Shown here one piece after another: positions 6,157-61,850 of a stretch of 64,000 nucleotides of DNA. Below the pieces are notes generated by a model. The model was not told the origin of the DNA, made no database searches, and saw only the letters and a list, made by a program, of their open reading frames with translations. The stretch is from Planctomycetaceae bacterium (GTDB lineage Bacteria > Planctomycetota > Planctomycetia > Pirellulales > Pirellulaceae): contig SYJV01000175.1 in assembly GCA_005798335.1 (NCBI GenBank), positions 3,280 to 67,279 on the forward strand, written 5' to 3'. Both the position numbers and the translations under genes were made by a program. Position 1 is the first letter of the stretch, and the number at the start of each line of letters is the position of its first letter.

Positions 6157-6290
6157 GGGAACTGTTCCGTAAATCGACCAACGCTTACTCTCTGGGCCGC
6201 ATGTGCAATTGAGTTACCACGATGAGGCATTCGTCGTGTAGCAACTGCCGGCACTGTTTCGACAGTGGCAGGAATATACTCATGGGGCCG

Positions 6291-6347
6291 CGTCATTGCT
6301 TGCATAGGATATTGACAAGCCAGAAACCTATCCCACATTCGTTGAAC
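6291..6347. repeat. Degenerate right-half remnant of MITE family B
   Basis: cgtcattgcttgcataggatattgacaagccagaaacctatcccacattcgttgaac aligns to the right half of the 122-bp element at 57257..57378 with about 8 mismatches in 57. It lacks the terminal ggtattg. It abuts the stop codon (6347-6349) of the cyclase gene. Confidence 0.7.
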
Positions 6348-8212: not shown

Positions 8213-8405
8213 AATCGTTGTAAGACCAAAGCAACAACAAACAGAGAAAGTTACGCTTTGCACAATTTTGGGGCGTCAATCCATCCAGCTTATTCCTTTT
8301 GAAGCATTAGAACAATCGTAGCAAATCGTCTTTGCCAGCATTGCGGAAGTTACACGATGGTTTCATGCAATCGCGACTGCCCAATCTTGCCCACCCAGAT
8401 AATGG

Positions 8406-13939: not shown

Positions 13940-14078
13940 CTAAGGCGAGCGGCAGATGGGAATTTACCAAGGCCTCAGCGAATACAAGCCCGATGCGCAA
14001 GCGAGTGCGTCAATCCTGGCATACACTCGCTTGCGCTTCGGGCTTGTATTGGTAAGAAACTATCTGCCGCTCGCCTAA
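13940..14078. repeat. Hairpin repeat family A, full copy 2 (139 bp)
   Basis: Same orientation as copy 1 and 138/139 identical to it; the single difference is c->t in aaacCatctg. It ends 33 bp downstream of the stop of ORF 14111..14569(-). Confidence 0.9.
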
Positions 14079-14110
14079 TGGCTAACGGGACTCCGAATTG
14101 AAGAAGCTGC

Positions 14111-25247: not shown

Positions 25248-25483
25248 ATCAAATCCAACCGTTTGAGGCAATTTTTAGAGCGGCAAATACAACTTTGTGC
25301 CGCTCAAACTTCCGATGAGTATACGGAAGCCATCGCGGGTGACAAACAAATAACTGACATTCTGGCCATTTTTTTAGAATTTTTAGCAGCCCCCCTGGCA
25401 GCATGCCGTTCGGCCGCCAGGATCAGCGCGACCAGTTTTTCAACGGTGCTTACAATTACAAGCACGACACGCAACTGAAAGTG

Positions 25484-25561
25484 TGCCAGGAATGACATAC
25501 TCGCTTGCGCATCGGGCTTGTATTCGCTCAGCCATGCTAAAATCCCATTCTGCCGCTGGCC
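25484..25561. repeat. Diverged half copy of hairpin repeat family A (inverted orientation)
   Basis: tgccaggaatgacatactcgcttgcgcatcgggcttgtattcgct... matches the reverse complement of the loop plus left arm of family A, at roughly 80 percent identity. It ends 3 nt from the stop codon at 25565-25567. Confidence 0.7.
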
Positions 25562-25564
25562 TTG

Positions 25565-45700: not shown

Positions 45701-48700
45701 TTACACTGTTCTGCTCCGCGGCATTGATAACATCGTCACCCATGATCGGAGCGTTGATCTGGATAGCTCGTATGACGGTATCCTTAAGCAATGCTGGGTG
45801 GTTTGGAAGGATGAAGTTTCCAACCGCGTCAACCGCCTTGACCTGCACAGTGATCGCGCCGTCCACCAAGCCGGTCAGGTTCGCAGGATTCAATGCCAAG
45901 CTGTAGTTACCGCCAACCTGAGCTGTGACATTCTTGACAACTTTGTTGGCTGGGTTCGCAGAATCCAAGAAAGTGATTTCTACATTACCAGATGGTTCAG
46001 CTCCTGTCCCCGAAATCTCAACAGTCGTAACTTCGCCAGCATTGATACGGTTGTCCAGCTCGATGGGAGTATTAATTGTTGCCACTGGCGCGGTGCGATC
46101 CATGATCAAGGCGCGAGTCGCAGAACCAGTATTGTCTCCCAGATCGGTGCTGGATGCTTTCACGGTCAAATTGCCATCGACCAATGCCGTACTATTTAAA
46201 TTGAATCCCGGTGCGGCGATTGTGAATTCGCCCTTGGCGTCCGCAACGACGCCATTGATCGTGACAACCGTGTTTTGACTATCGGTGACTTGGATCGTCA
46301 CGGGCCGATTCGGATCAGCACCGGCACCGGCAACGATAAATACCGGAGACTCGAACATATTGACGGCGTTGTCAGTCATGATCGGCGCGGTGATAGTGAT
46401 GTTTGGTGCGACTCGATCGATGGTAATAACGCGAGTTGCTGTTGCCAGGTTACCAGCCGCGTCAATATTGTTGGCAGTTACGGTCACCGGTCCATCGGGG
46501 AAGTTCGACAAATTACCATCGTTACTTGGAATTCCCAAAGCAGGAATTGCCGCCAAAGTATACTTGCCGGTTGCATCTGCGACTACGGTTTTGACTTGAG
46601 TAGTTGGGCCACTTGTAAAGGTGACCACGACAGATGTATTCGGCGTCGCGTTAATACCCTCGACTGTCACAACGTCGTCTTCTGCTGCACTGACTACATC
46701 ATTACCTGCAATCGGACCGGTAATGGACAATGTAGTGGGTGCTGTATCTTTGCTGGCCGTTCGTGTTGCTACGCCAGCATTATCCGCTTGGTCGCGACTG
46801 GTTGCGGTTACCGTAATGTTCGCAGTTGCAGCGTCTGCTAAAGGAACTGCAAAAGGCGCATTCAGAGACAAATTAGCTCCAACACGCACATCCACAATTG
46901 CCTGATAGTCGCCAATCGCATTAGCAAACACTCCAGCCAAAATACGTTCGGGTCCACCTGCCTGCTGGATCTTGATTTCGACTGGCAAGTTTGGTTGCGC
47001 TCCTTTGCCATTTATCACCAGTCCCGGTGCCTCATTTTCGTTGATGATACCATCTCCGCCGATCACATTTAGAATGATGCTTGGTGGCAGGGTATCAACA
47101 GTAATTTGGAATTGGCCAGAGTCGGGTGCTGGGTTTCCTGCGGCGTCTCTTGCTCTAGCGATCATCTGGTAGGTGCCGTTGGGCAAAAGACCAGTTGCCA
47201 ATGTCCATGTTCCGGCAGCAGCATTGAGGGTAGCAAGGCGATCTCCGCCGGGAAGACCAGAAATCGTAACCGTGCTGGACTGAGCGGCATCGTAGGTGCC
47301 GTTCAAGGTAAAGCTGGTATGGTTGGTACTGGCCAAATTGTTCAAAGTTGTCGGCGAAGTGGCTGCTCCACCAGATGCATTTGTAGCATTGATAATCGTC
47401 GCTGCGGCGGTCGGTGCGGTCTCATCCAAGGTTGCAGTAAATCTAATTGCAGCTTCGTCCGCACCAGACAGCGCGATCGGATTTCCTGCAACATCCGTAA
47501 ATCTCACATCGACGTTTATGCCACCTTCATTGAGGCCGCTGATGTTGATTGGATTCCCATTGCCAAGCTTATCCACAGTAAAAGCATAAGTAAGAGGCAC
47601 GTTATTCGCATCCACCGTGAGCACCGTTGCCGTACCAAAGCCAACAATGTCTCCCGTAGCCGGACTGTTATTTACATCGATAAACGTAACAGCAACTTGT
47701 CGGCCGGTCAGCAACCCTGCGTTGGGATTAGCATCCGAAATCGTGCCAGAAATTGTAACTGCGTTGGATTCCTGAATGCTAATCAAGCCTAAGTTGGTCC
47801 CCGTTGTCGCGGGAGCAGCGGGTAGGTTATCGAAATTCGTACCAGTGACCGCAAGGATTGGAAGCACCGTGTCTATCGTATTAATCGCGCGAGTCAAATT
47901 AGTCACGTTGCCAGCAAAATCCACTGCAGTGACTATTATGTTCGCGGCTGGCGTCGTCCCGGTCAACGTTGCATTTGCCAGCGTTTGAAGTTGCGCAGTC
48001 GTAAATACTCTGTTAAAGCTACCGTTACCATCCGCTGGCACACTAAACGGACCAATAGTAACACCATTTGATCCAACAATCTGGATTGAAACAGAAGCAA
48101 ATGGCGTAGTGGTACCCGTGACTCTGCGTGCATCATCACTACCCACCAATTCTCGACGATTAAGTGTACCATCGCCGCTAAAACCGCTATTGGCAAGCGT
48201 AAGAACTGGGGGTACCGTATCCAATTCGACATTTACTTTTGCGGTTCCCTTATTCCCAGCCAAATCAGTGACTTCGGCAGTTACTACTACAGTGCCGTCA
48301 GTAATACTGGCAATGCTGAATGGTGCGGTAGCGTAAGTATTGGCACCCGTGACCGTTGCGGTTGCAACAACGTCAGCCGAGCCTGCCTTCCTAAATGTAA
48401 GCGTAACAACACTACCAACATTGATGCCAGCGGTGTCCGTAACCGTACCGCTAACGATAACGCCATTCTTTTCACTGTTGTTGACGAAGTTATCGCCGGT
48501 GATGGGAGCAATGGTAATTGTTGGAACACCGGTATCTTTTGCAACCGTGGCGGAAGTCAATCCGATGTTGCCAGCCGCGTCCGTATTGCGAACGGTTATC
48601 ACAATCTGACCATCGGCCAGCGCGGTCAAGTCTGCTGTCGTTGTAAAGTTCGTACCTACTGATGTGACATTGCGTGTCACGGAATTAACGCCGTCAGAGA

Positions 48701-51700
48701 AAGTGATCAACACATTGGAATTCGGAAATGCTCCGATACCGTTAATCTGAACATTGGCGACTTCATTGGCGCCAATGCGATTGTCGCCCATCACCGGCGT
48801 CGTGATAGTCAATGATGGAGCGTTACGATCCAAGACAACATTTCGAGTCGCGGTACTCTGATTGCCGGCGCGATCCGCACCCGTCACCGTAATGGTAAGT
48901 GCACCATCCATGAAATTCGCCAGATTAAATAGATTTCCATCATTTGCAAATGCCCCGTTCACTACCGGAGCTGTGCGAGTTTGGCTGATAGCGACGTTGT
49001 TTACATCTAGGCCTACGATCGTAATCGTAACACTGGGAACGCCCGATCCCGTGGCGCCGTCGCCGGCAAGGCCAGATACTCGCACGTTCAGCGACTCGGC
49101 AGCGTTGATAACGTTGTCCGCAGCCACCGTATCAATGAAGATCAGCGGACCTTGGGTATCCTTGAAGAGGACAATGTTCGCCGTACCCGTGTTTCCAAAT
49201 GCATCGGTACTGGTCGCGGTGAGATCAATCTGACCATCCAGCAGTCCGGCGATGTTCGCTTCGTTTCCTGGCGCTGCCGCTCCCAATACAAGAGCATAAA
49301 CACCATTTGCATTAGCAGTTACATTGCGTACAACTGGCTGCGTTGTGCCCGCGTTAACCCCGGTATCATTGAATGTAATAGTTACCAGCGAATTCGGTTC
49401 TGCACCCGAGCCAGTCACTATCACTTGTGTTAATTGAGTTGCATTGAGTGCCGTGTTGTTCAGCGGCGCACCAATCACGATGGCTGGTCGAATTGTGTCC
49501 AATGGTACAATTGCGGAGGCAGAGCCGGTATTGCCCAGTGTGTCGGTGCTAGTAACTTGGATTTTCACATCACCTTGGCTGAATCCAGATAGATCGACTT
49601 CGTTGCCCAGCAACGTGAATCCCCCCGCTGCATCAGCGGTGACCGTACGGGACGCAGAACCCGTTGGACTTCCAGTAAATGTCACAGTGACCGGACGATT
49701 GGCAGCAGCACCGGTTCCTTGAATCAAGACGTCTGCCGCTTCTGCCGCATTAATTCGATTGTCATTTTCAATTGGCGATGTGATCACGATCGCGGGCGGA
49801 TTGGCTTGTTTGGTAAACGTCGTAGTAGCGATTCCGACATTACCAGCTAAATCCTGTGCCGTTGCCTGGACAAGAATGACCCCATCTGGCAATCCAACGA
49901 TGTTGGCTGGGTTCGCAGCCAACGTCCAATTGTTTCCAGTAGCGGCAACGGTTCGTGTCACCGAATTTGCACCGATCGAAAACGTCACAGTTACCGTACC
50001 GTTCGGAGCGTCCGTGGTACCACTGACCACCAGGGCATTAGCCTCGGCTAGCGTGACCAAATTGTCCGACGTGATAGGTGAGTTGATGGTTACCACGGGT
50101 GGAACTGTGTCCACGGTGATTGGACCAAACGGACTGGAAACAGCACCCTCATTGGGCGCGTTGTCCCTTAAGGTCGCCGTGAAATTGTATACTCCAGCCG
50201 GCAGTACTGAAGTTGTCGCAGTCCAAGCAGTTCCATTAACGACTGCGGTGGCCACTTCTGTGCCGTTTGCCTTCACGGAAATTATTGTGCCATTAGCCGC
50301 AGTGGTCGTACCGGTAAAAGTAAGCGTTGTATCGTTCGTAATACTACGATTTGTTGGCGCGAGCAACAGTGGCGCAAAATCATCGGTGGCACCCAAGATT
50401 GACACCGCACCAGCAGGGATCGAGGTATCGTAGAATACTCCCCTTTGGTTGGTACTGGTGTTGTTTGCGTTGTCGGTAAACGATGCCATCACTGTGACGG
50501 CACCTTCCGAAAAGGCCGGTGCAGCCGAAAGATTGAACAGCGCAGTAAATACACCATTCGCATTGGCAACAGCGGAAACGGTGCGAACGATATTGGTTGG
50601 AACTAGTTGTGTTACGGTCACGGTAACGACGCCACCTGCATCGGCACCAGTACCCGTAATTACTAGTGCAGAACCCTCTGCAATACTAACTATATCATTA
50701 CCGGCAATCGGCGTAGTAATTAGGATTACCGGTGTCGATGTATCCTTGTTCAACACGCGCTGGGCACTGCCAACGTTGCCGACCGGATCCGTGCTGGTAA
50801 CGGTAATCGTTACTGGGCCGTCAGGCAGCGCGGTAATATTTGCGCCTGGATTGAGGTTATAAGTTCCGTCTGCCGCAGCCAAAACTGTGCGAGTCACTGT
50901 GTTTCCACCGCCGCCGGCAAATGTAATCGTAACGTTGGTATTTGGCTGTGCACCGGTTCCAGTCACAATCACATTCGTGGCTGGAACAGCGGGAGCAATA
51001 CCTGTCAAGTTAATAGTGGTTCCTGCGGTCGGTGTGGTAATTTGTACAGCAGGTGGAGTCTTGTCTAACGTAAAGGTCGTCGTCGTGGATGTCGGTGTAC
51101 CATTGGATGGCAGCGAGCTGACGCGAACGGTAATTTGTCCATCGTTCAAGGCGGTAATATTAAAACCAGCAGCGGGCAGCGAATATTGACCATTGGCGCC
51201 AGCGATAATGATCGGAGCGGCCAGCAAGTTAGTACCATCCAAAAATTCGACCAACACTGGCTGGTTCGGAGCTGGACTAGTACCAGAGATTACAACTTGT
51301 GTGGCTTCGGTAGCATTAACAACATTGTCGGCAGTAATTGGGGTGTTAATCGTGGGGGCAGCGGGAGCGGTTAAGTCAATCGTAAATGCTCGGCTGCTTG
51401 ATCCCGTATTTCCCGCAGCGTCTGAACTTATAGCGATTACCGAAGCAGCTCCTTGAACAAACGGAGGAGCAGCCAACAAGTTCACTGGCGCACCGCTAGT
51501 GTTGAACTTACCTGTCGCGTCAGCTTGTACCGAAACCTGCTTGACGACTGCACCTTGAATATAAGCGGTCGTGACGAATTGATTTGGCTCGGCACCGGTA
51601 CCTGAAACTGAGACGTTTCCTGCTTCGCCCGTTGTAACAACATCGTCACCGCCAACTGCGTTGGGCAGTTGCGGCAACGGAGCGATCGTATCCTTGCCAA

Positions 51701-52130
51701 TCGTACGAGTTACAGCGCCCGTGCCGTCATTAACCGTAACGGTAATATTCTTGTTGGTTTGAGCGGGGACAGGACTTTCCGCAAACGTAAACAAGTTCGC
51801 GCCTGGAGCCTTCCAGGTACCATCCGCGGCCGCTGTGGTGTTAACTATGGTCGAAGAGGCACCTTGAGTAAAGGTAACAACCACATTAGACGAAGCAGTA
51901 GCTGCGGTTCCGGAAACGATAACAGCGTTTTGTTCCGAACTGTTGACGATATCGTCACCCGCGATCGGCAAAATGTTCACGGCCATTAGTTTGCGGCCTT
52001 CGAGCGATTCGCTCAGCAAACTGCGGAATGCGAACCGATTGGAGCGTGAGCTGGTTTGGCTGAGCCCCAAAATGTTGCATAAGGCGAACCAAAGTCCAGC
52101 GGCTTTGCTGATCACCCAGTCACACACCAC
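42747..52130 (-). CDS. giant (3127 aa) Ig-like-domain repeat surface protein with dockerin-like C-terminus
   Basis: About 25 tandem ~100-aa modules, each opening with D(T/R)xxP...I(N/T)xPIxGD(D/N)xxNxxE...(I/V)SGTGAEPN..VT(V/I)TF. These are followed by a cadherin-like segment and a duplicated Ca-binding loop tail (DTDGSTIVDLTDLNAL...DKNGDNFVDFTDLNAF). The N-terminus carries the planctomycete-type motif SLLSESLEGRKLMA. The start is uncertain; GTG 52130 is the first start codon of the ORF. Confidence 0.85.
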   Translation of the reverse strand: MVCDWVISKAAGLWFALCNILGLSQTSSRSNRFAFRSLLSESLEGRKLMAVNILPIAGDDIVNSSEQNAVIVSGTAATASSNVVVTFTQGASSTIVNTTAAADGTWKAPGANLFTFAESPVPAQTNKNITVTVNDGTGAVTRTIGKDTIAPLPQLPNAVGGDDVVTTGEAGNVSVSGTGAEPNQFVTTAYIQGAVVKQVSVQADATGKFNTSGAPVNLLAAPPFVQGAASVIAISSDAAGNTGSSSRAFTIDLTAPAAPTINTPITADNVVNATEATQVVISGTSPAPNQPVLVEFLDGTNLLAAPIIIAGANGQYSLPAAGFNITALNDGQITVRVSSLPSNGTPTSTTTTFTLDKTPPAVQITTPTAGTTINLTGIAPAVPATNVIVTGTGAQPNTNVTITFAGGGGNTVTRTVLAAADGTYNLNPGANITALPDGPVTITVTSTDPVGNVGSAQRVLNKDTSTPVILITTPIAGNDIVSIAEGSALVITGTGADAGGVVTVTVTQLVPTNIVRTVSAVANANGVFTALFNLSAAPAFSEGAVTVMASFTDNANNTSTNQRGVFYDTSIPAGAVSILGATDDFAPLLLAPTNRSITNDTTLTFTGTTTAANGTIISVKANGTEVATAVVNGTAWTATTSVLPAGVYNFTATLRDNAPNEGAVSSPFGPITVDTVPPVVTINSPITSDNLVTLAEANALVVSGTTDAPNGTVTVTFSIGANSVTRTVAATGNNWTLAANPANIVGLPDGVILVQATAQDLAGNVGIATTTFTKQANPPAIVITSPIENDNRINAAEAADVLIQGTGAAANRPVTVTFTGSPTGSASRTVTADAAGGFTLLGNEVDLSGFSQGDVKIQVTSTDTLGNTGSASAIVPLDTIRPAIVIGAPLNNTALNATQLTQVIVTGSGAEPNSLVTITFNDTGVNAGTTQPVVRNVTANANGVYALVLGAAAPGNEANIAGLLDGQIDLTATSTDAFGNTGTANIVLFKDTQGPLIFIDTVAADNVINAAESLNVRVSGLAGDGATGSGVPSVTITIVGLDVNNVAISQTRTAPVVNGAFANDGNLFNLANFMDGALTITVTGADRAGNQSTATRNVVLDRNAPSLTITTPVMGDNRIGANEVANVQINGIGAFPNSNVLITFSDGVNSVTRNVTSVGTNFTTTADLTALADGQIVITVRNTDAAGNIGLTSATVAKDTGVPTITIAPITGDNFVNNSEKNGVIVSGTVTDTAGINVGSVVTLTFRKAGSADVVATATVTGANTYATAPFSIASITDGTVVVTAEVTDLAGNKGTAKVNVELDTVPPVLTLANSGFSGDGTLNRRELVGSDDARRVTGTTTPFASVSIQIVGSNGVTIGPFSVPADGNGSFNRVFTTAQLQTLANATLTGTTPAANIIVTAVDFAGNVTNLTRAINTIDTVLPILAVTGTNFDNLPAAPATTGTNLGLISIQESNAVTISGTISDANPNAGLLTGRQVAVTFIDVNNSPATGDIVGFGTATVLTVDANNVPLTYAFTVDKLGNGNPINISGLNEGGINVDVRFTDVAGNPIALSGADEAAIRFTATLDETAPTAAATIINATNASGGAATSPTTLNNLASTNHTSFTLNGTYDAAQSSTVTISGLPGGDRLATLNAAAGTWTLATGLLPNGTYQMIARARDAAGNPAPDSGQFQITVDTLPPSIILNVIGGDGIINENEAPGLVINGKGAQPNLPVEIKIQQAGGPERILAGVFANAIGDYQAIVDVRVGANLSLNAPFAVPLADAATANITVTATSRDQADNAGVATRTASKDTAPTTLSITGPIAGNDVVSAAEDDVVTVEGINATPNTSVVVTFTSGPTTQVKTVVADATGKYTLAAIPALGIPSNDGNLSNFPDGPVTVTANNIDAAGNLATATRVITIDRVAPNITITAPIMTDNAVNMFESPVFIVAGAGADPNRPVTIQVTDSQNTVVTINGVVADAKGEFTIAAPGFNLNSTALVDGNLTVKASSTDLGDNTGSATRALIMDRTAPVATINTPIELDNRINAGEVTTVEISGTGAEPSGNVEITFLDSANPANKVVKNVTAQVGGNYSLALNPANLTGLVDGAITVQVKAVDAVGNFILPNHPALLKDTVIRAIQINAPIMGDDVINAAEQNSVNVTGTNAEPNAIVTVSLDDNNAATPAVVRTVTADAAGNFTLATNLAGISTLNDGQITVTASNSDAAGNTSNASRSVTKDSSIPGLTINTPIAGGPQTPGISGYVTDGERTAGFTISGIGATPNSTVTVSLIGVGASRLFNVTSTATGTWVTPSIDLRSSGGLAFGDGFITVSASNADPSGNVSTDVDTIVLDTAAPNIVRLANWNGANAPALATVFALTYPPVPTPPATLPDPRMPTNLPANSFVVLRDVGATAYILDQIVNGPTIFVNDNTLVVVGQISDGTSASNPAAANTLVGNTVTVRNGGTTLGTAVVNENGRFIFEIPAQATGTALEINVLITDLAGNVSAGTGSNTTGANSGLDNGLTITIDSAAPVLSINPIAGNDFINAAEVAAVVITGTTNTNGIPVSVIITQGNLVVNEITTAAAGAFTVTANLSGFAQGGITVTAVSTDLGNNTGQATRSTAVIDTVAPLLAVTTIAGNDVINAAEAPGVVVTGTRDDLPVTVTATSGNQTVTATANANGTANYTVTLPSIVAFPDGPVTITAQSTDPAGNVTTVTRVVVKETTVPAVTVNTPITSDNVINASEQAAVPVSGNGAEPGLNVKITFRDVNNNSVAVNTAAGPTGAYSIIAPTVANISSLVDGTITVIVESTDPFGNVGTATTTAIKDTTGPVVTTNLLTITTQVTTLTTGVLNAVDAVSPAANVTYIVTNAPQSGFLALTSAPQVPISTFSQAQVNAGQVLYTQTIANAFDAVQFVATDAVGNATSGRLDIQLQNVTVPRVESVVINDGNATRSSLKKLTVTFNTVVQIDAGAFVVQRRDDIAGAPITIGNVPAAQTNVGAPAVVAGKTVVSITFLPTVAPSSPATTFVDSAGSLIDGNYRLEIDATKVRSQAGLFALDGDNNGAPGGNFVYGNQAVDKFYRLYGDTDGSTIVDLTDLNALVIALTSGNYREDLDKNGDNFVDFTDLNAFLQNFNASRNLNGF

Positions 52131-52930
52131 TACTGGCGTTCGAAACGCGCGTTACCACCACGACAAGCGATCGTGATGTCGAGCGAGCATGTGAACGGTG
52201 GCAAGTTTGATCCGTTCCCGAAGGCGAAGTACCTTCTCGCGACTGCGTGCGATGCGAGCTGAGTCAAGGGAACTGTTACGGGAATTGCGTCTTGATGCGG
52301 ACATTGTAACAACCTCTGTTCCAGCGAATCGGGGGGAACGCCCAAAAAGATCAACTGAGTTTCTAACTAGTTCGGATTTTTACGGCTGAGACGATTCCAA
52401 CTGGTGCTGCGTGAACGGAATTGGAAATCGTCAAATTATTAAACAGGATTTGGGATGGGAATTTCAGGTACGATCTACCAGTTTGAGCTTTGCGCCAAGA
52501 TTGCCGAATTTCGAGACTTGTCTTGTTAGCAAGGAAATTGGCACTTCGAGCAAACTAGCGAAAATAGCAGATACTCAACCGATAGTAACTGGGGCGGTTG
52601 CACAAAATGCTCCCTCGCGCAAGCGTACGTGCGATAGCTTCGAAGTGAATTGATGCCCAGGAATCCATAGAACGATGCAGTTCTCCCTTGAACTGCTCGT
52701 ATTTTTGAGCGATACCCTACGCAAATTTTTGAGCGATGCACTACGCGAAGTCGAAGAATGGAAATCTCCGGTGCATCGACCAGCTAAAAAGCTGGTGGGC
52801 AGATAGTTTCCAACACCGACGATCAACTAATTTCTGCCACTAAAATTTGTCAAATCGTAGTGGTCAGTAAATAATAGTTGGTTCGACTAGAATCGGAGGA
52901 ATGATCTTTGCAGAAGTTTGCAACGACTGT

Positions 52931-53072
52931 GGTCTAATTGCAATACCGTTCAACGAACGTGGGATAAGTTTCCAGCTTGTCAATATTTTGTGCAAGCAAT
53001 GGCGAAACTCCGCTACAGGTTGACAAGCTGGAAGCTTATCCCACGTTCGTTGAACGGTATTGGGTCTAATTG
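52931..53072. mobile_element. MITE family B copy 1: 122-bp element (52941..53062) with 10-bp target-site duplication ggtctaattg
   Basis: Terminal inverted repeats caataccgttcaacgaacgtgggataag(t/c)ttccagcttgtcaa of ~43 bp. The direct repeats ggtctaattg at 52931-52940 and 53063-53072 are identical. The element is too short to code for a transposase. Confidence 0.85.
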
Positions 53073-53086
53073 GACGAAGTTTGTTT

Positions 53087-54919
53087 TTACTTTGAATCGA
53101 TAGGTTGCTCGGTCGTTTTGGCCTTAGTTTGGTCCGCTGGTTTGATTTGCTTGTCTGCTTCTTCTTTTTTCTTTTGCGCGGCGTCCGCGTCCTTTTTCTT
53201 TTGCTGCTGGTCAGCAATCTTCAAATGCACTTCGGCTTGTTCTGCATTGCCTTCCAGTTTGTAAGCTTCGGCAATTCGTTGGTGATACTCGGGACATAGT
53301 TTGCTACCGCGACCAGCCAACTCGATTGCAAACTCCAATTGGGTAATCGCTTCGGAATATCGTTTCTGCTGGATATACACATAGCCAAGCGTATCTCGAA
53401 AATCCGGAATGAAGGGCGCGATGCGCACTGCCAGCTCTGCATGCTCACGAGCCTTCTCAATCTCGTTGGGCTTGTGCATGGCCAATGTGTATGCCAAGTT
53501 GTTGTTATACTGCGGGTTGCCGGGTTGGCTAGCGAGCAGTTTCCGGCAGTGATCAATGGATTTGTCGTAGTTTTCTTGCAAATAGTAAGCTTCTGACAAC
53601 ATGGCATGAGTCAATGGCGTCGCGGTTCCTTCCGCCAAGACTTCTTTTAACTGATTGATAAGATGCTCGGGTGGTTTGTCTCCGCCGATGCGCACCAAGA
53701 TGGCGATTTCCTCGGATATGCCAGGATTCGTTGGGTCTACACGCATGGCTTGATCTAACAATTCAATGTTGGCTTGCCAAGTTGGTTGGTCACCTGTGAT
53801 AATCTCAAGCGAGCGTTTGAAGCGCACGCGCAGCACGTCGGAAAGACCTCGGCTGAGCGACTTGATTTCTTCAGGCTTCAGTCCCGGTCGACTCAAGCCC
53901 TGGTCGAGCAATTGTGTTGCCGTCACCAGGTCGTCGTTGGTCGAGCTCTTGTATGAGATATGTACTTGTGCGAGCATCAACCGATCGCGAGGAGTGTCTT
54001 CACCTTTTGAGATTAGATCTCCAAAGTAAATTTTGGCTCGCCGAGCGGCATTGTCGGCCTCCGCTTTGCTGTCGGATGCCTGAGCGGCTTCGAGGACCTG
54101 CAGATAGTACTCGGGCTGCAGCGTGGCGGCACGCTTCAGCAAGTCGATAGCGCGCAGAAAATTCTTCTCCTGAAACGCGAACTGCGCGGCCAGCATCAGC
54201 AGTTGCGGCGGAGTAGTGGAAAATTTAGTCGATTGATCCAGATGGTGCCTTAATACTGGAAGTTGTTCCGTGGTAATATTTCCCAGGCGCAGCATGTTGT
54301 ATGCAATCAATGCATGCGAACGAGAGTGCCCTTCTTTGTTATCGGGAGCAATTTCCTTCAGCAAATTGATTCCAGCAGTTAACGATCCTTGTTGGCTCAT
54401 CATCGCGGCGATGACAAACATGATCTCAGGGTTATCCGACTGCAGTTGCTGAGCGCGACGAAAAACTGCCTCGGTGAATCGCGAAATTTTGACTTCTTTT
54501 TTTGGCTCGGCAGCCTTCGGAGCAGCACTTTTCTGTGTCTCGCTGGATTTTTTGCTATCGCGCGCTGGGCTCGTTTTTCCGCCAGGCGTGCGCTTGCCCT
54601 TGTCATCCGATTTTGGCTCAGCAGCGGCCGCTGCCGCTTCAGCATCAAGCTCGTCGAGATTGATTTCTGTTTTTTCTCCGGTGCCTCCAAAAGCCCAATC
54701 GTCACCGATTTTCTTCAGCTCTTTCTCGCCGATTGATAAGTACCATCCAGCCAACGGTTGCTTGGGCAGCAAGCTACCCCAGGTCGACATCATGAACAGC
54801 GTTACAGCGATCAGGCCGGGCAGCGCCAGCAGAGATATTCGGCCCCACGCGCGGGTAATTAACCAATCAAGAAAACAACCGGAGGCGTTCACCAGAATGG
54901 CGCCAGGTGCCAGATGCAT
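53087..54919 (-). CDS. membrane-anchored TPR repeat protein with K/A/E-rich low-complexity regions
   Basis: An N-terminal TM helix (ISLLALPGLIAVTLFMMSTW) and a lysine/alanine-rich linker are followed by multiple TPR-like units (e.g. AYYLQENYDKSIDHCRKLLASQPGN, YIQQKRYSEAITQLEFAIEL). The tail is basic and acidic. It starts 50 bp downstream of the exosortase-like gene. Confidence 0.75.
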   Translation of the reverse strand: MHLAPGAILVNASGCFLDWLITRAWGRISLLALPGLIAVTLFMMSTWGSLLPKQPLAGWYLSIGEKELKKIGDDWAFGGTGEKTEINLDELDAEAAAAAAEPKSDDKGKRTPGGKTSPARDSKKSSETQKSAAPKAAEPKKEVKISRFTEAVFRRAQQLQSDNPEIMFVIAAMMSQQGSLTAGINLLKEIAPDNKEGHSRSHALIAYNMLRLGNITTEQLPVLRHHLDQSTKFSTTPPQLLMLAAQFAFQEKNFLRAIDLLKRAATLQPEYYLQVLEAAQASDSKAEADNAARRAKIYFGDLISKGEDTPRDRLMLAQVHISYKSSTNDDLVTATQLLDQGLSRPGLKPEEIKSLSRGLSDVLRVRFKRSLEIITGDQPTWQANIELLDQAMRVDPTNPGISEEIAILVRIGGDKPPEHLINQLKEVLAEGTATPLTHAMLSEAYYLQENYDKSIDHCRKLLASQPGNPQYNNNLAYTLAMHKPNEIEKAREHAELAVRIAPFIPDFRDTLGYVYIQQKRYSEAITQLEFAIELAGRGSKLCPEYHQRIAEAYKLEGNAEQAEVHLKIADQQQKKKDADAAQKKKEEADKQIKPADQTKAKTTEQPIDSK

Positions 54920-54968
54920 GGGATTCTCCCGAGTTGAATACCAAAATCAATTAAGACAACAACACGCT

Positions 54969-56747
54969 CTACGGAGACGTCTTTAGGATGCGCGATTTTA
55001 GGGCAGCGGAGGCTTCGACAACGAATGTTTGGTAGTCACCGCGGCGGCTATCGGAAATGGCTTTGCCTGAATCTAGAAATAAACGCGTTTGATAGGTTAC
55101 CAGATCTTTTGCGGATTTGCCAAGCAATCGCCCGACAAGAGTTCGGGATAGTCGCCGATTCCAGTCCGCGCGCCATCCGCTTTCTGGAACGGCCGGATTT
55201 CCGCTGGAGTCAAACGCAGTGTACCAACCATAAGCAACTGACTTCAAGTCGTTGACAAATTCGACCTCGACGATGGGCCATGGTTGGCTGCCACTTTCCC
55301 CTGCAATCGCCAATCTTTTTGGCGCTGCGTTGAGTCTCCAACCTGTGCCCGGCATGACCAACCAATGCTGTTGTTGTCCAACATACGGAAAGTCAAAAGC
55401 AACCACCGGTAATCCGTCGGTACCCGAATATCGCCATGCTAATAGGTGCGTTTTGTTCCCAATCCCAAACTCGTGTTCGGAACGATCAACACCCTGCTGT
55501 TTCAGTCCTCGCGACTCGATCGGCAATGTGTCCAGCGCACCGATCACCGCTAATTGCTCTTCTGCGTAGGCAGGCACTACAACGCCAGCCGACGGACTTG
55601 GCAGCAATGCCCCGATGACTCCCAGCACCGACACCAGCAGCGAGCCAATCATCAACGGAATTCGCCAAACGCTGGCTGCCCAGGGATCGGTTGCTCGAAT
55701 CGTGTCACGGTAATTGGGTCCCTTCCATGCGGTCGTTTGTTTTTTCTGCGTGGTCGCTTCATCGTCCCCAAAATAATCGTCTTGCTCTTCTTGGTCGGCT
55801 CCTTGGAAGGTCAGATTTCCTGGCCACATTACGACGCGATTGTAAAAACCATGCAAACCGACGGTCGCTTGTTGAGACAATTCAACCGGCAGCGGCTCAA
55901 ACAGAAACGATAATGCGTCAATCAAGATCACCAAGAACAGGAATGACAATACGAACAGACCGATATTCAGAAAGACTCCAGTTGCCCCAATCGACCAGTC
56001 GGCTGCAAAGGATTCGCGCCCCCAGATCAGCAAGAGTATCTTCAAAGAGTTGCTCAGCCACCCCAAGATTGGAATCGTTGCCAAAGTGAAAAAACTCATA
56101 ACGAACGGGCGACGCATCCACAGCAGCAGCGTCAGTGCACAAAAAGCCAACAAATAAACGCTATTCCACGAGAAAGCGTGCGAAGCCAAATCGAGGCGTT
56201 CGCTGCGCAAGTCTAATCGCAACTCTTGCAGCAAATTCGGAGTACCAATCAAATCGAGCAACGGACTCAACATAGTCGCCGCCTTGCGATAAAGCATGTC
56301 GACTAAACGTGTATCCAGCCCCGCAGGTGGCCAGGTAACCCACAACAGACCGGTGAGCGCAATTAATCGCGTCCAGGGGACTATTCCAAACCAAACTAGT
56401 ATCCAACCCGTTACTAGCATGATTGCAGCAAGCTGGCTCGTCGCAGGTGAAATCATGAACGCAGCGGCAAGGCTCATGGCGATCCCTGCTACGGTAAATC
56501 CTATCGAAAACACTCTTCGCAAATGTGATGCCGCAAATCCCACTCGCGGTTCAGTGGCAATAAATGCGGCGAAAACCAGCCAGGCGACGAAATAGAATCG
56601 CAGGTGAGGTTTTCCCCAAAGGGCTGTCATCTGCACCACTAGCAGCGGAATAATGGATACTATTCCGCTTAGGATTAACCAATTTGTAGCTGTGGTCCAG
56701 CGAGAATTGGTTGCGGTCGGCTGCGGTATATTTCCTGGTTCTGCCAT
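54969..56747 (-). CDS. exosortase-like polytopic membrane protein with EpsI-like C-terminal domain
   Basis: The N-terminal ~300 aa are multi-TM with an exosortase-like layout (WPPAGLDTRLVDMLYRKAATMLSPLLDLIGTPN...LDLASHAFSWNSVYLLAFCALTLLLWMRRP...IPILGWLSNSLKILLLIW). The C-terminal soluble domain contains QQHWLVMPGTGW, reminiscent of the EpsI H-x-P-x-x-C-x-P-G-x-GW motif. The start is ATG 56747. Confidence 0.55.
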   Translation of the reverse strand: MAEPGNIPQPTATNSRWTTATNWLILSGIVSIIPLLVVQMTALWGKPHLRFYFVAWLVFAAFIATEPRVGFAASHLRRVFSIGFTVAGIAMSLAAAFMISPATSQLAAIMLVTGWILVWFGIVPWTRLIALTGLLWVTWPPAGLDTRLVDMLYRKAATMLSPLLDLIGTPNLLQELRLDLRSERLDLASHAFSWNSVYLLAFCALTLLLWMRRPFVMSFFTLATIPILGWLSNSLKILLLIWGRESFAADWSIGATGVFLNIGLFVLSFLFLVILIDALSFLFEPLPVELSQQATVGLHGFYNRVVMWPGNLTFQGADQEEQDDYFGDDEATTQKKQTTAWKGPNYRDTIRATDPWAASVWRIPLMIGSLLVSVLGVIGALLPSPSAGVVVPAYAEEQLAVIGALDTLPIESRGLKQQGVDRSEHEFGIGNKTHLLAWRYSGTDGLPVVAFDFPYVGQQQHWLVMPGTGWRLNAAPKRLAIAGESGSQPWPIVEVEFVNDLKSVAYGWYTAFDSSGNPAVPESGWRADWNRRLSRTLVGRLLGKSAKDLVTYQTRLFLDSGKAISDSRRGDYQTFVVEASAALKSRILKTSP

Positions 56748-57134
56748 CAACTGCTATCCCTACTACTCCCGGTTAAAGCCCTCGTGCTGTTCAACTAATC
56801 AATCTGACTCGTCGGCACGCGGCAGGATCCATCAAAACGCGTTGATAAACGTCACTGCCCAGTCACGTCCGAGCCAGCTCGTTCGAACGGCTTCGTGGTT
56901 CAAGGGGGAGCGTATCGCGCAACCACCCTTCGATACACTATACGCCTTATTCAAGGGATCGTGTTGATTCGCTGTGTTTTATTCACTTTTCTGGCTCTCT
57001 TACAAAAGGACTAATTGTTACCAACTTGTTTCGCAACACCGGCAGGGATCGAATCAACGGTTGTTTCCGCTAAGATTAGAAGGGTGCTTTAACCTCACTT
57101 TTTCGGCAAACTCGCCAAATTCGGAAACACGCTC

Positions 57135-60100
57135 ATGATCCCGCTCATATTTAAGCGGCCCGCGATTTGCTTGTTTAACCCGCAGCCGCAGGCGAGGACT
57201 ATCTACGTTTACGCGATTTACCGCAGTTGTCCTCGCCTGTGGCTGCGGGTTAAACACAATACCGTTCAACGAACGTGGGATAAGCTTCCAGCTTGTCAAC
57301 CTGTAGCGGAGTTTCGCCATTGCTTGCACAAGATATTGACAAGCTGGAAGCTTATCCCACGTTCGTTGAACGGTATTGGGGTTAAACAAGCGAATCGCGG
57401 GCCGCTTGGGGTCATCTTCCTACTTGGCGCAATTCTCAGTCTGAGCAATCCTGAGCGAGCTCAAGGCGTTCAGACGGGCCCGCCAGAAAGCTTAGAAGTG
57501 CTGTTCTGGGGCGACAACGGTCATCATCAACCAGCCGCGCGCGCTCAGCAGCTCATACCAGTTCTGGCAAGTCGCGGAATCCGCGTTCAGTATTCAGACA
57601 ATTCCGATGACCTGAATCTCGATAACTTGAAGAAGTTCCATGGCCTAATACTGTACGCCAACACGACGCGCATCGAACCTGCACAAGAATCGGCCTTGCT
57701 GGAGTATGTTGCGCAAGGCGGCGGTTTTGTTCCTTTACACTGCGCATCGTATTGTTTCTTGAATTCATCCCCCTACATCGATTTGGTGGGCGCCCAGTTT
57801 CTAAAACACGGCGCAGAAACGATGGCTACCAAGATCGTTGCACCCGATCACCCGATCATGCGCGGTTTTTCGGGATTTCAGAGCTTCGATGAAACCTACA
57901 TTCACACCAAACACAACGATCGCAATCGAATCATCTTGGAAGTTCGCGAGCAGGGTGGCCAGGCTGAAGGCAGATCCGCCGAGCCCTGGACATGGGTTCG
58001 CACCCACGGATCAGGTCGAGTTTTTTACACTGCCTGGGGACACGATCATCGCACTTGGGGGCATCCGGGGTTTCATGCTCTTGTCGAACGAGGAATTCGT
58101 TGGGCGTGTGGCAGCGACCAGGCACTAAATCAACCCTACCTCGATCAAGAAGTATTTGCAGTACCAGAAATGACCACACTGGCTGGCGACTTGGTACCTT
58201 TTGAATACGAAGATGTGGGACCAAAAATTCCCAACTATCCTGTAAGTGAACGTTGGGGAGTCTTGGGCCAGAACAAGTCACGCATGCAGAAACCGCTGCC
58301 GCCTTCGCATTCGATCAAACACTTCGTTACACCTGAGAACTTCCATTTGGAACTGTTCGCCTCAGAACCCGAGATTCAAGGCAAGCCCATTGCTATGAAT
58401 TGGGACCATCGAGGCAGACTGTGGCTGTGCGAGACCATCGATTATCCCAACGAATTGCGCCCGCCAGGTGAAGGCCGCGACCGGATTCGCATTTGTGAAG
58501 ATACCAACGGAGACGGACGAGCGGACAAATTCACCGTATTTGCCGAAAACCTCAGCGTACCCACGGCCATCGAGTTCTACCGTGACGGCGCAATTGTACA
58601 CGCGGGAGTCGAAACGCTGTTCCTGCGCGATACTAACGGCGATGATCGCGCCGACCAGCGCGATGTGCTGATTACTGGTTGGGCCATGAACGATACGCAC
58701 GGCGGTGTCAGCAATTTCCAATACGGACTCGATAATCGCTATTGGGCCATGCAAGGCTACAACAACTCGCGCCCTAAATTTGCAGGCGGCAGCCATCCCG
58801 GATTCCGGCAAGGTCCCTTCAACTTTGTGGTGGACGGCGTTCAGGCACCAGCAGTTCCAAGTGTCGAATTCGTCCGTTCGACGACGAATAACAGTTGGGG
58901 ATTGGGAATCAGCGAAGAAGGGTTGGTATTCGCCTCGACTGCTAATCGAGCCCCCAGTTTTTTTGTGCCGATTCCAAATCGTTACTATGAACGAGTACGA
59001 GGCTGGAGCGCATCTCTAATCGCCGATGCAATCTTTGACACGCACTTGTTCAAGCCGATCACTCAAAATGTGCGGCAAGTCGATCATCACGGGGGATACA
59101 CCGCTGGTGCTGGGCACGCACTCTATACAGCGCGGAATTATCCACAGTCTTGGTGGAACCGCGTGGCGTTTGTGTGCGGTCCAACGGGTCACTTGGTAGG
59201 TACCTTTGTCTTGCGTCGCGAGGGAGCCACCTATCGCGACACCAACCCGTTCAACCTGCTGGCAAGCGACGATGAATGGTCCGCTCCCATCATGGCCGAA
59301 GTTGGACCGGACGGAAATGTGTGGGTCATCGATTGGTACAACTTTATTGTCCAGCACAACCCGACGCCCCAAGGTTTTTCCACCGGTCAAGGCAATGCCT
59401 ACGAAACGGATTTGCGCGACAAGAAACATGGACGCATCTATCGCGTCGTTTACGATGGTCCCGACGCTGGGCACGCACCTTCGCCGGATCTTTCGTCAGA
59501 AAATGCGGCAGGCTTGGTCACCGCACTATCGCATCCTAACCGGCTGTGGAGACGACATGCACAGCGCTTGCTGGTGGAACACAATCATAGGGATGTCATC
59601 GGCCAGTTGTTAAGACTAGTCAAAGAGCCGTCAATGGATGCCGCTGGTCTGAATGTAGGAGCTATTCACGCGCTGTGGACATTGAAGGGAATCGGAGCCA
59701 TCAACGAGCAAGCGAAAGATGTAATGCAAGCGATCTCGGCCGCACTTCGGCATCAGTCTGCGGGAGTTCGCCGCAATGCCGTTCTCGTCCTGCCACCATC
59801 AGAGCACTCGATCAGTGCTATTGAAAACGCAGGCATCCTAGCCGATTCCAATCTTCAAGTTCGCCTGGCGGCGTTTCTCGCACTAGCCGATATGCCGGAG
59901 AATGCTCAGGCAGGCGAATTGCTGGCTCGCGCGGCACATGTGCCAGAAAACGTTGCGGATCGATGGTTAAAAGAAGCGATCATTTGCGCCGGAGCTAGCC
60001 ATGCCAGTTCGTTTCTAGCTGGACTTTTGGGAGCGAACCTTCAGTCGAGCACCTCAACCGCAGGAGGCGAAGTCGCCGTGCCAACTGGCAGAATCGAAAT

Positions 60101-61850
60101 CGCCACCGTGTTGGCTGAACACTTGGCGCGCGGCAAACCGAATACACAGCAGCTTACTCAACTCCTGTCGAAGGCTCGCGCTGCTCATCCTACGATCGCA
60201 CAAGCTGTAATTCGGGGACTGGCGCTCGGCTGGCCTCGCGACTATCAACCTGAAATGACGCAGATCCTCGAAGCGGAACTTGATCAGCTCGTTGTTCAAC
60301 TGCCGATATCCGCGCGCGGTCAGCTTGTGCAACTGGCAGGGAACTGGGGGAGCGACAAACTCAAGAAATACGCCGCTGAAATAAAGCGCGACTTGATGGA
60401 GTCAGTAACCAATGCCAGCCTGTCCGAACAACAGAGAATTGCTGCTGCCCAAAATGTCATCGACATTTCCCCCAACGACGCGGAAGTGGTCAGCCAACTG
60501 GTGCAACAAGTGACACCGCAATTGTCGCCTGCCGTTGCTTCAGGGATTATTCGCGCTCTGTCTGCTAGTCGAGCAACCAATTTGGCTCGGACGCTCGTTA
60601 GTAGTTGGGGACGGCTGACTCCCTCGATGCGCGCTGATGCGATGACGGTGTTACTGGCGCGACCTGAGTCGACCGCGCACATGATGGAAGCAGTCTCGCA
60701 AGGTTTCTTGACGATATCCGACCTATCACTCGACCAGCGGCAAACGCTGCGCACGCATCCAGACCGTGATATTCGTACAGCAGCCAATCGCATGCTCGCC
60801 AATACTGGCGGCTTGCCAAATGCGGACCGCCAAAAAGTAATCGACGAATTTCGCTCGGCGACTCTTGCGACAGGCAATCCAACGCTTGGCAAACAGATCT
60901 TTGTGAAAAACTGCGGCAACTGCCATAGGCACTCGGGCGAAGGCCAGGAGATTGGTCCAGACCTGACGGGAATGGCGGTGCATCCCAAAGCGGAACTCTT
61001 GATCCACATACTGGATCCGAGCAGAAGTGTAGAAGGGAATTTCCGTCGCTATACGGTTTTGACCAACGACGGAAAAGTTATCGCGGGCATGCTGGCCGCT
61101 GAGTCGCTGACAGCGATCGAATTAATCGATGGAGAAGGCAAGCGTCATTCGATCTCGCGTGTTGACGTCGAGCAATTATCCTCGACCAACAAATCCGTGA
61201 TGCCCGAAGGAATTGAAACACAGATCAAGCAACCGGACATGGTCGACTTACTGGAGTTTCTAACCAGCAAGGGACGCTTTGTTCCGTTGCCGCTGGGGAG
61301 CGTCGCGACAGCGGTCAGCACCAAAGGTCTATTCCACGACGGCGATAACGGTCCGGATCGGATGGTGTTCGATGACTGGAAACCGAAAGTCTTTGGCGGC
61401 GTTCCCTTTCATGTGATCGATCCGATTGGCAAGTCTCGTCCAAACATTGTGTTGCTGAATGGTCCCAACGGATCATTGCCGCCCAAAATGCCGCGCAGCG
61501 TGACTTTGCCATGCAATATGGTTCTCAAGAGCCTGCATATGCTCAGCGGCGTCAGCGGCTGGGGCCATCCCGCGTCGCGTGCCGGTTCAACCAGTTTGAT
61601 TGTCCGGTTCCATTATATGGACGGTCAAACCGAAGATCATGAACTGAGAAACGGCGTGCATTTCGCTGACTACATTCGTAGAATCGACGTTCCTGAATCT
61701 CAATTCGCATTCCGTTTGCGCGGTCAACAAATTCGCTATCTGGCCGTAAGTCCCAAACAACGCACTGTTGTGCGTGATATCGAACTGTTGAAAGGAAACG
61801 ATTCCAGCGCACCAATCGTAATGTCGATGACGGCCGAACAATTTCAATAG
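57135..61850 (+). CDS. ThuA-like domain / PVC-type membrane-bound dehydrogenase domain / HEAT-like repeats / cytochrome c (CxxCH) fusion protein
   Basis: ThuA-like region (LEVLFWGDNGHHQ...GGGFVPLHCAS...FYTAWGHD), dehydrogenase N-domain (FHLELFASEPEIQGKPIAMNWDHRGRLWLCET...DTNGDGRADK), heme c site (GKQIFVKNCGNCHRHSGEG), then a ~250-aa C-terminal domain. The 5' end is problematic: codons 7-91 are encoded by palindromic repeats. The alternative start TTG 57366 would give MNGIGVKQANRGPLGVIFLLGAILSLSNPERAQG. Confidence 0.8.
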   Translation: MIPLIFKRPAICLFNPQPQARTIYVYAIYRSCPRLWLRVKHNTVQRTWDKLPACQPVAEFRHCLHKILTSWKLIPRSLNGIGVKQANRGPLGVIFLLGAILSLSNPERAQGVQTGPPESLEVLFWGDNGHHQPAARAQQLIPVLASRGIRVQYSDNSDDLNLDNLKKFHGLILYANTTRIEPAQESALLEYVAQGGGFVPLHCASYCFLNSSPYIDLVGAQFLKHGAETMATKIVAPDHPIMRGFSGFQSFDETYIHTKHNDRNRIILEVREQGGQAEGRSAEPWTWVRTHGSGRVFYTAWGHDHRTWGHPGFHALVERGIRWACGSDQALNQPYLDQEVFAVPEMTTLAGDLVPFEYEDVGPKIPNYPVSERWGVLGQNKSRMQKPLPPSHSIKHFVTPENFHLELFASEPEIQGKPIAMNWDHRGRLWLCETIDYPNELRPPGEGRDRIRICEDTNGDGRADKFTVFAENLSVPTAIEFYRDGAIVHAGVETLFLRDTNGDDRADQRDVLITGWAMNDTHGGVSNFQYGLDNRYWAMQGYNNSRPKFAGGSHPGFRQGPFNFVVDGVQAPAVPSVEFVRSTTNNSWGLGISEEGLVFASTANRAPSFFVPIPNRYYERVRGWSASLIADAIFDTHLFKPITQNVRQVDHHGGYTAGAGHALYTARNYPQSWWNRVAFVCGPTGHLVGTFVLRREGATYRDTNPFNLLASDDEWSAPIMAEVGPDGNVWVIDWYNFIVQHNPTPQGFSTGQGNAYETDLRDKKHGRIYRVVYDGPDAGHAPSPDLSSENAAGLVTALSHPNRLWRRHAQRLLVEHNHRDVIGQLLRLVKEPSMDAAGLNVGAIHALWTLKGIGAINEQAKDVMQAISAALRHQSAGVRRNAVLVLPPSEHSISAIENAGILADSNLQVRLAAFLALADMPENAQAGELLARAAHVPENVADRWLKEAIICAGASHASSFLAGLLGANLQSSTSTAGGEVAVPTGRIEIATVLAEHLARGKPNTQQLTQLLSKARAAHPTIAQAVIRGLALGWPRDYQPEMTQILEAELDQLVVQLPISARGQLVQLAGNWGSDKLKKYAAEIKRDLMESVTNASLSEQQRIAAAQNVIDISPNDAEVVSQLVQQVTPQLSPAVASGIIRALSASRATNLARTLVSSWGRLTPSMRADAMTVLLARPESTAHMMEAVSQGFLTISDLSLDQRQTLRTHPDRDIRTAANRMLANTGGLPNADRQKVIDEFRSATLATGNPTLGKQIFVKNCGNCHRHSGEGQEIGPDLTGMAVHPKAELLIHILDPSRSVEGNFRRYTVLTNDGKVIAGMLAAESLTAIELIDGEGKRHSISRVDVEQLSSTNKSVMPEGIETQIKQPDMVDLLEFLTSKGRFVPLPLGSVATAVSTKGLFHDGDNGPDRMVFDDWKPKVFGGVPFHVIDPIGKSRPNIVLLNGPNGSLPPKMPRSVTLPCNMVLKSLHMLSGVSGWGHPASRAGSTSLIVRFHYMDGQTEDHELRNGVHFADYIRRIDVPESQFAFRLRGQQIRYLAVSPKQRTVVRDIELLKGNDSSAPIVMSMTAEQFQ
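57153..57407. repeat. Composite palindrome: 123-bp hairpin element (family C) interrupted by MITE family B
   Basis: The outer arms aagcggcccgcgatttgcttgtttaacccgcagccgcaggcgaggac and gtcctcgcctgtggctgcgggttaaaca[...]agcgaatcgcgggccgctt match 45/47 once 57257..57388 is removed. The loop is tatctacgtttacgcgatttaccgcagtt. Confidence 0.85.
57247..57388. mobile_element. MITE family B copy 2: 122-bp element (57257..57378) with 10-bp target-site duplication gggttaaaca
   Basis: It matches the reverse complement of copy 1 at 120/122 positions. Its 43-bp terminal inverted repeats are perfect. The direct repeats gggttaaaca at 57247-57256 and 57379-57388 are identical. It is inserted in the right arm of the family C palindrome. 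Confidence 0.88.

Follow-up and report, generated by a model that had tools for sequence, protein, structure and literature searches.

Genes and repeats of the locus

The stretch of DNA analyzed here, which we call the window, spans 64,000 nucleotides, and its gene content is typical of planctomycetes. Specifically, the window features ThuA, DUF7133, and cytochrome c domains, PEP-CTERM, and a 3127-aa protein. The TruB protein encoded in the window lacks a close named relative: the best is 59% identical, and the named matches are Aureliella, Pirellulaceae, and Pirellulales MAGs. The ORF specifying the 3127-aa protein (42747-52130, minus strand) contains several internal repeat families of approximately 36-37 nt at irregular spacing. 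Its product is probably a giant repetitive surface protein.

Two copies of a 122-bp element, which we classify below as a MITE, reside in this setting. Copy 1 (52941..53062, minus strand) is located between the stop of a TPR-protein ORF (53087-54919, minus strand) and the start (52130) of the 3127-aa ORF. Its arms span 52941-52983 and 53020-53062, its loop spans 52984-53019, and it is bordered on the left (52931..52940) and on the right (53063..53072) by the 10-mer GGTCTAATTG, which fits the target motif of the family, including the central TA. The stop codon of the TPR-protein gene lies 14 nt past the right duplicate, while the start of the 3127-aa ORF is 800 nt from copy 1. Two tandem 24-nt units (ATTTTTGAGCGATACCCTACGCAA, 88% identical) are present upstream of copy 1, at 52701-52748. 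Copy 2 (57257..57378, plus strand) has arms at 57257-57299 and 57336-57378 and is bordered by GGGTTAAACA at 57247..57256 and 57379..57388. In both copies, 43-nt arms that are 98% complementary surround a 36-nt loop. The loops are in opposite orientations, and copy 1 matches the reverse complement of copy 2 at 120/122 positions, the two exceptions being positions 29 and 47. Four occurrences of the 28-nt terminus are present in the window, compared with none in 100 shuffles. An earlier note on this DNA had described two such inverted copies, each between its own perfect 10-bp direct repeat. All of its coordinates are right, and GGTCTAATTG and GGGTTAAACA are each present once on each side of their copy. 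The element accounts for two long palindromes of the window.

A profile search of the window (nhmmer, family profile) returns only copies 1 and 2 and a degenerate right half of a copy at 6284..6347 on the plus strand (consensus positions 52-115; E 2e-12). The half copy, which the earlier note had placed at 6291..6347 with approximately 86% identity, is indeed 86% identical over those 57 nt, and the outermost 7 nt of the terminus are absent from it. At 6340-6349, this truncated remnant abuts the stop codon (6347-6349, minus strand) of a guanylate-cyclase-domain ORF (6347-8263, minus strand).

As RNA, the 122-bp element folds at -78.1 kcal/mol (z = -16), which bears out the earlier expectation of a very stable hairpin. 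No U-tract follows the hairpin, and no terminator is called for the element as a whole. Thus, copy 1 is not a canonical terminator.

Copy 2 interrupts a second palindrome, here called element B (57153..57407). The left arm of element B occupies 57153-57199, and its right arm is split by copy 2 into 57229-57256 and 57389-57407. When copy 2 and one duplicate are removed in silico, the two arms are of equal length and mirror each other as reverse complements at 45/47 positions. Arrival by insertion into a palindrome, as proposed earlier, is therefore sustained by the restored symmetry and, in addition, by paralogous filled and empty sites elsewhere, described below. Element B palindromes are present at 57153-57407 and 1076-1101 of the window and at other loci (L046:3786-3870, L113, L089, L018, and L073). 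They possess a conserved arm, CGTTTAACCCGCAGCCGnAGGCGAGGA, and a variable loop, and their outer arms vary between copies yet remain complementary. Palindromes akin to element B are present in the metagenome.

The insertion of copy 2 lies in the 5' region of the ThuA/DUF7133/cytochrome-c gene. Together with its duplicate, copy 2 contributes 132 nt (44 codons) that contain no stop and keep the frame of ORF 57135-61850. From copy 2 to the hydrophobic core of the signal peptide, neither ATG nor GTG nor TTG is present. Near the signal peptide, a TTG at 57366-57368, inside the MITE arm, is the sole start codon in frame, and its use would yield MNGIGVKQANRGPLGVIFLLGAILSLSNPERAQG. Candidate translation starts are thus the ATG at 57135, this TTG, or a site farther downstream. 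The right outer arm of element B in the window encodes the residues KQANRGPL of the signal peptide.

The window also contains a second MITE-like family, 142 nt in length (6018-6159, 13940-14081, and 25449-25563), in which two copies share 99% identity and the third is down to 79%. The inverted repeats of this family are nested, its termini are GGCGAGCGGCAGATGG, and it apparently duplicates TAA; many copies at 95-99% identity exist in the same metagenome (SXGS01/SXGT01). The 122-bp element often targets the ends of the 142-nt family plus TAA.

A high-copy MITE family with a palindromic 10-bp target

When metagenome contigs were scanned for exact matches to 23 nt of the terminus, at least 120 loci emerged, nearly all of them in SXGS01/SXGT01. 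Among the loci listed, 71 copies are complete, and 59 of these are exactly 122 nt; length variants range from 121 to 132 bp. The 59 copies yield a consensus that is identical to copy 2 and two bases away from copy 1. The family is homogeneous: 17/59 copies equal the consensus and 22/59 differ from it by one base, so 39/59 fall within one mismatch. Loop orientations are balanced (31 vs 28). The element was not found in viral contigs by scanning or in plasmids by blastn, and it has no match to an Rfam family at gathering score, the sole match being a sub-threshold mir-92 hit on the host palindrome.

The flanks define the insertion reaction. Perfect 10-bp duplications surround the element at 38/59 unique insertion sites, with all 38 different from one another, and duplications with one mismatch are present at 9/59. 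By contrast, the next-outer 10 nt of the two flanks differ at 4-10 positions (59 unique sites with enough flank). Counted by position, the flanks agree in 50-59 of 60 cases inside the 10 bp and in 5-20 of 60 just outside. This drop to chance level fixes the duplication at exactly 10 bp and places the ends of the element precisely at CAATACCG...CGGTATTG. Moreover, because the flanking 10-mers vary by site yet match within a site, they are target-site duplications and not element sequence. The earlier note had read the flanks of the window copies as the footprint of transposase-mediated insertion and had proposed a catalogue of further copies and their duplication lengths as the check. That reading holds: the copies are many, and their flanking 10-mers are site specific and 10 bp long.

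With orientations pooled, the target logo is the palindrome CGnTTAAnCG, with a central TA in 70/76 cases. Long open frames are underrepresented at insertion sites: the stop-free frame that spans a site has a median length of 126 codons, vs 454 at random positions. Repeats are also targets. Specifically, one copy (L028) interrupts a repeat whose uninterrupted paralogues, at L106 and L079, carry CGTTTAACCC once.

In prokaryotes, the definition of MITEs includes small size (~50-600 bp) and no coding capacity (PMC6382973). The 122-bp element is small and non-coding, it has terminal inverted repeats, its duplications are of fixed length and vary in sequence, and its copies are many, dispersed, and similar. 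Thus, the 122-bp repeat is a real, high-copy MITE that duplicates exactly 10 bp on insertion.

Tn5-like elements nested in the MITE arms

In some copies, the MITE termini enclose far more than 122 bp. Specifically, at locus L122, 1743 bp lie between MITE termini and encode a 489-aa protein (P0001), and a perfect 10-bp duplication, CGCCTAACTG, surrounds the composite. At L105, 1792 bp lie between the termini, and the longest ORF is 508 aa. Both proteins carry Tnp_DNA_bind and Dimer_Tnp_Tn5 and match NF033590; DDE_Tnp_1 exceeds the Pfam threshold only in the 489-aa protein. The closest solved structure to P0001 is Tn5 transposase (E 1.5e-27), and P0001 retains intact DDE and YREK residues. Between the two transposase-bearing composites, the outer 36 bp and a 50-nt hairpin core show no difference, whereas the transposases share only 29% identity and the interiors have no relationship at the DNA level.

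The obvious suggestion is that these Tn5-like ISs, which share the outer 36 bp (L122, L058, and L105), are the autonomous parents of the MITE. Their transposase genes do lie between termini identical to those of the MITE, they encode the domains named above and DDE and YREK residues that are intact against Tn5, and perfect 10-bp repeats border the L122 composite. Nonetheless, each of these elements possesses inner ends of its own, CTTTTTATACCCCACA or CTCTGTATTACCCACA, and perfect 9-bp repeats are present just outside those ends: GCTTCCAGC in L105 and GCTGGAAGC in L122 and L121. Likewise, in L095 a ~200-bp deletion derivative is flanked by a perfect 9-bp GCTTCCAGC duplication. What remains after removal of the inner element together with one 9-mer is an ordinary MITE or, in L122, a MITE variant. 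Two isolate genomes (L128, L125) show the same 9-bp pattern, there within unrelated host repeats. In Novipirellula sp. SH528 (CP197418.1), a 59-nt hairpin repeat hosts a Tn5-like element, and the duplication is GCTTCCAGC. Strain SH139 (CP197414.1) has two copies: one interrupts a short repeat that resembles a hairpin and is flanked by GCTGGAAGC, and the other lies within a tandem array of 31-nt units, where the duplication is probably GCAAGGATG, one base off register. Finally, relatives of the L105-type transposase in other metagenomes have CT ends and none of the MITE outer termini.

The inner ends conform to a known subgroup. The L105-type end and the CTGAGTATTACCCACA end of its relatives agree with the IS50-subgroup consensus CW------Y---CA-A--W- wherever it specifies a base, and the L058-type end deviates from it at position 9 only. 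The IS50 subgroup is recorded with 8-9 bp duplications (PMC2266710). The MITE departs from this subgroup on both counts: its tip misfits the consensus at positions 13-14 and 19, and its duplication is 10 bp.

Given that the Tn5-like elements have their own ends and their own 9-bp duplications, and that their relatives lack the outer termini, they are nested insertions in MITE arms, and the 10-bp duplication around L122 belongs to the host MITE. Parentage by the Tn5-like elements is largely refuted, and we put its probability below one in ten. Duplication length (9 vs 10), target, and termini all differ between the two kinds of element, the MITE tip does not resemble the Tn5-like ends (alignment not above shuffles), and the occurrence of 29%-identical enzymes within 100%-identical outer sequence fits a shared host element. 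Two versions of a structural relationship were considered and rejected. The MITE as a fold-back derivative of a Tn5-like IS end conflicts with the 9-bp duplications at the CT ends and with relatives that lack the outer termini. The MITE arm, read from the center outward as a pseudo-end of a Tn5-like IS, has only TTAT..CCCAC in common with such an end, and the alignments do not rise above shuffles.

Nested Tn5-like elements, or their derivatives and relatives in other hosts, are located at L105:1104-2764, L122:127-1700, L058:79-1652, L095:11006-11201, L085:37-239, L128:510-2077, L125:1406-2977, and L126:1406-2977. In L058 the hairpin core is present on both sides of the insertion, and in L085 it is present on neither side; recombination between copies nested in opposite arms could have produced both arrangements. 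Next to the L126 element, at 2978-3100 (CP197414.1, SH139), the 31-nt tandem units contain GAACGTGGAATAGGC, which resembles ACGAACGTGGGATAAGC of the MITE arm despite the distant hosts.

In the window, the 9-mer at which the Tn5-like elements land in other copies is unoccupied. In copy 2, the 9-mer GCTTCCAGC lies in the left arm at 57284..57292 (plus strand), and its inverted twin GCTGGAAGC lies at 57343-57351. The equivalents in copy 1 are at 52968-52976, where the 9-mer is mutated (GTTTCCAGC), and at 53027-53035.

The nested elements appear to be strongly site specific. The 9-mer GCTTCCAGC adjoins CTATYCCAC in 4/4 hosts of the L058 clade (CTTATCCCAC in the MITE), and two clades whose transposases are 29% identical use the same 9-mer in three independent genomes or metagenomes. 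One hypothesis, for which we judge the chances to be about even, is that the MITE arms, together with related hairpin and tandem repeats of other Pirellulales, serve as dedicated landing pads for site-specific Tn5-like ISs. If so, P0001 is expected to favor GCTTCCAGC followed by CTATCCCAC. The outcome may be layered transposons, in which a transposase gene travels within a MITE that is itself moved by a different enzyme. A 131-bp variant of the MITE is present at several different sites (L025:1207-1337, L026:1951-2081, L058:3289-3419, L061:32-162, and five more), and it differs from the 122-bp form only by a tandem GCTTCCAGC-GCTTCCAGC. This tandem could be the excision footprint of a nested element.

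Tn5 is valued for near-random insertion. Natural Tn5-like enzymes that choose one 9-mer beside a motif would thus be useful for studies of target choice. We regard site-specific nesting as the most interesting by-product of this analysis, and it would show how transposons nest in one another. For comparison, the recorded target of Tn5 is the loose motif AGNTYWRANCT (PMC2577343).

Proposed mechanism and the mobilizing enzyme

We consider it likely that the repeat is a trans-mobilized, non-coding 122-bp DNA transposon that inserts by a 10-bp staggered reaction, with an IS4-family enzyme outside Tn5/IS50 as the leading candidate for the agent. The boundaries, duplication length, target motif, insertion into repeats, copy number, and homogeneity are observed directly; mobilization in trans, the enzyme family, and the recency of activity are inferred. 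The notion is that the element, with its 43-bp terminal inverted repeats (5'-CAATACCG...CGGTATTG-3'), would be recognized by a DDE-type transposase encoded elsewhere. The transposase would bind both of the identical ends and excise or copy the MITE. Integration would follow via cuts staggered exactly 10 bp at palindromic CGnTTAAnCG, and repair of the stagger would generate the 10-bp direct repeats. By repetition of this cycle, the family would have spread in an uncultured Pirellulaceae-like planctomycete.

A parent with cognate ends was sought in the window and in ~1 Mb of loci around the copies, and no transposase gene with cognate CAATACCG ends was found there. The statement in the earlier note that the window contains no transposase gene stands for Tn5-like transposases, the family that was screened (tblastn). 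The same note had suggested a search with the terminal sequence. Across the ~1 Mb of loci, that search did recover transposase genes between termini, and those genes belong to the nested Tn5-like elements with ends of their own. A relaxed search with the first 19 nt of the element allowed up to 4 mismatches. It produced 227 terminal matches, all but two of which are MITEs or MITEs with nested elements; the remaining two look like chance. No inverted 12-mer pair 0.6-3.5 kb apart marks another element in the ~1 Mb of loci, nor does any DDE transposase with a YREK motif lie between cognate ends there, apart from the nested Tn5-like genes.

The ends of the MITE offer hints to the enzyme family. 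Outside the IS10, IS50, and ISPepr1 subgroups, IS4-family elements are recorded with ~10-bp duplications and CA ends (PMC2266710). The MITE has 5'-CA termini and a 10-bp duplication, in line with the non-IS50 subgroups. Relative to the right end of E. coli IS4, the MITE tip has 12/20 bases in common, including AAT.CCG.TCA; the E. coli IS4 duplication at the compared site is 12 bp. Relative to the IS4 consensus -AATR--------WTW----, AATA at positions 2-5 fits and WTW at positions 14-16 does not, and relative to the IS4Sa consensus CA------T, the T at position 9 fits. Because CA termini combine with a duplication of one helical turn and a symmetric target, an IS4-family enzyme outside Tn5/IS50 is the most likely candidate. 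Judged on these sequence features, an IS4-family parent is a tentative assignment to which we give slightly less than an even chance.

Could the element be something other than a DNA transposon? One alternative is a REP/REPIN-like or host-maintained palindrome that acts as a terminator or mRNA stabilizer and was spread by a Y1 (RAYT) transposase or by recombination. The very stable hairpin, the mostly intergenic locations, and the position of copy 1 just downstream of a stop codon are all features that such a palindrome would display. However, REP/REPIN sequences spread without a fixed-length target duplication, whereas the MITE is bordered by an exact 10-bp duplication at a palindromic target. 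The missing U-tract, the lack of a terminator call for the whole element, and the lack of an RNA family match also speak against this alternative. We consider this alternative extremely improbable.

A second alternative accepts the transposition described above and places it in the past. Here, the family would be a fossil: its parent would be extinct in this genome and its copies immobile now. This possibility accommodates the failure to find a parent in the ~1 Mb of loci around the copies, the presence of degenerate or truncated copies (window 6284-6347; L082 and L106), and the comparison of two assemblies of the window locus, which revealed no polymorphism. In that comparison, the second assembly (ERZ27257035, L127) is 99.97% identical over 52899-58919. 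It is the only second assembly of the locus, and it contains both copies, so the presence/absence polymorphism that the earlier note had proposed to look for was not seen. What weighs against a fossil family is its very low divergence, with 39/59 copies within one mismatch, and the preservation of perfect duplications at 38/59 sites. In addition, MITEs with a nested ~200-bp element are present at many sites, at the usual target. This pattern suggests that the outer ends were active after nesting; alternatively, nesting occurred independently in resident copies. On balance, we find a fossil family unlikely. The homogeneity of the family points to a recent burst, which is its most likely origin. 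The verdict of the earlier note, that the element was probably recently active, is accordingly plausible as an inference from homogeneity only (17/59 copies equal the consensus, copy 2 included), while polymorphism that would add to it was not seen at this locus.

Relationship to known systems

A literature search found no published description of this element or of the metagenome behind the SXGS01/SXGT01 accessions, and a limited full-text search found none of such mobile elements in Planctomycetes. Comparisons are drawn with systems from other bacteria.

The abundance of the MITE invites comparison with REP/REPIN sequences, as both are abundant, intergenic, hairpin-forming repeats. They part at the insertion site. 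REPINs have no target-site duplications and depend on a RAYT Y1 transposase, whereas the MITE has exact 10-bp duplications.

Tn5/IS50 is the counterpart of the elements nested in the MITE and not of the MITE itself. The nested elements carry CT ends that come close to the subgroup consensus, they duplicate 9 bp, and their target, GCTTCCAGC, retains the G.T...A.C symmetry of the Tn5 motif AGNTYWRANCT (PMC2577343). The 122-bp MITE, in contrast to Tn5/IS50, has CA ends, a 10-bp duplication, and another target.

A further analogy is to bacterial MITEs that a resident IS mobilizes in trans, such as MITEAba12 with ISAba12 of Acinetobacter (PMC6382973). Like MITEAba12, the element described here is small and non-coding, carries terminal inverted repeats, generates a duplication of fixed length, exists in many near-identical copies, and inserts beside or inside genes and other repeats. 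Unlike MITEAba12, it has no parent IS with matching ends among those found, its duplication is 10 bp and not 9, and its host is an uncultured planctomycete. Also unlike MITEAba12, 43 of its 122 bp form the inverted repeat, which is unusually long. With 43-bp repeats in 122 bp, the MITE is an almost perfect palindrome.

MIC231 is a cassette of the IS4-family subgroups to which we tentatively look for the mobilizing enzyme. The IS4, IS4Sa, ISH8, and IS231 subgroups (PMC2266710) have in common with the MITE their CA termini, a symmetric target, and duplications that span approximately one helical turn (8-13 bp). The difference is that an IS4-type transposase is not linked to the MITE ends, which agree with the IS4-subgroup end consensus in part. 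Taken together, these comparisons describe an ordinary bacterial MITE in kind. Its long arms and its clean 10-bp palindromic target are notable, though not new in principle, and the many insertion sites of the family form a clean collection in which this target is sharply defined.
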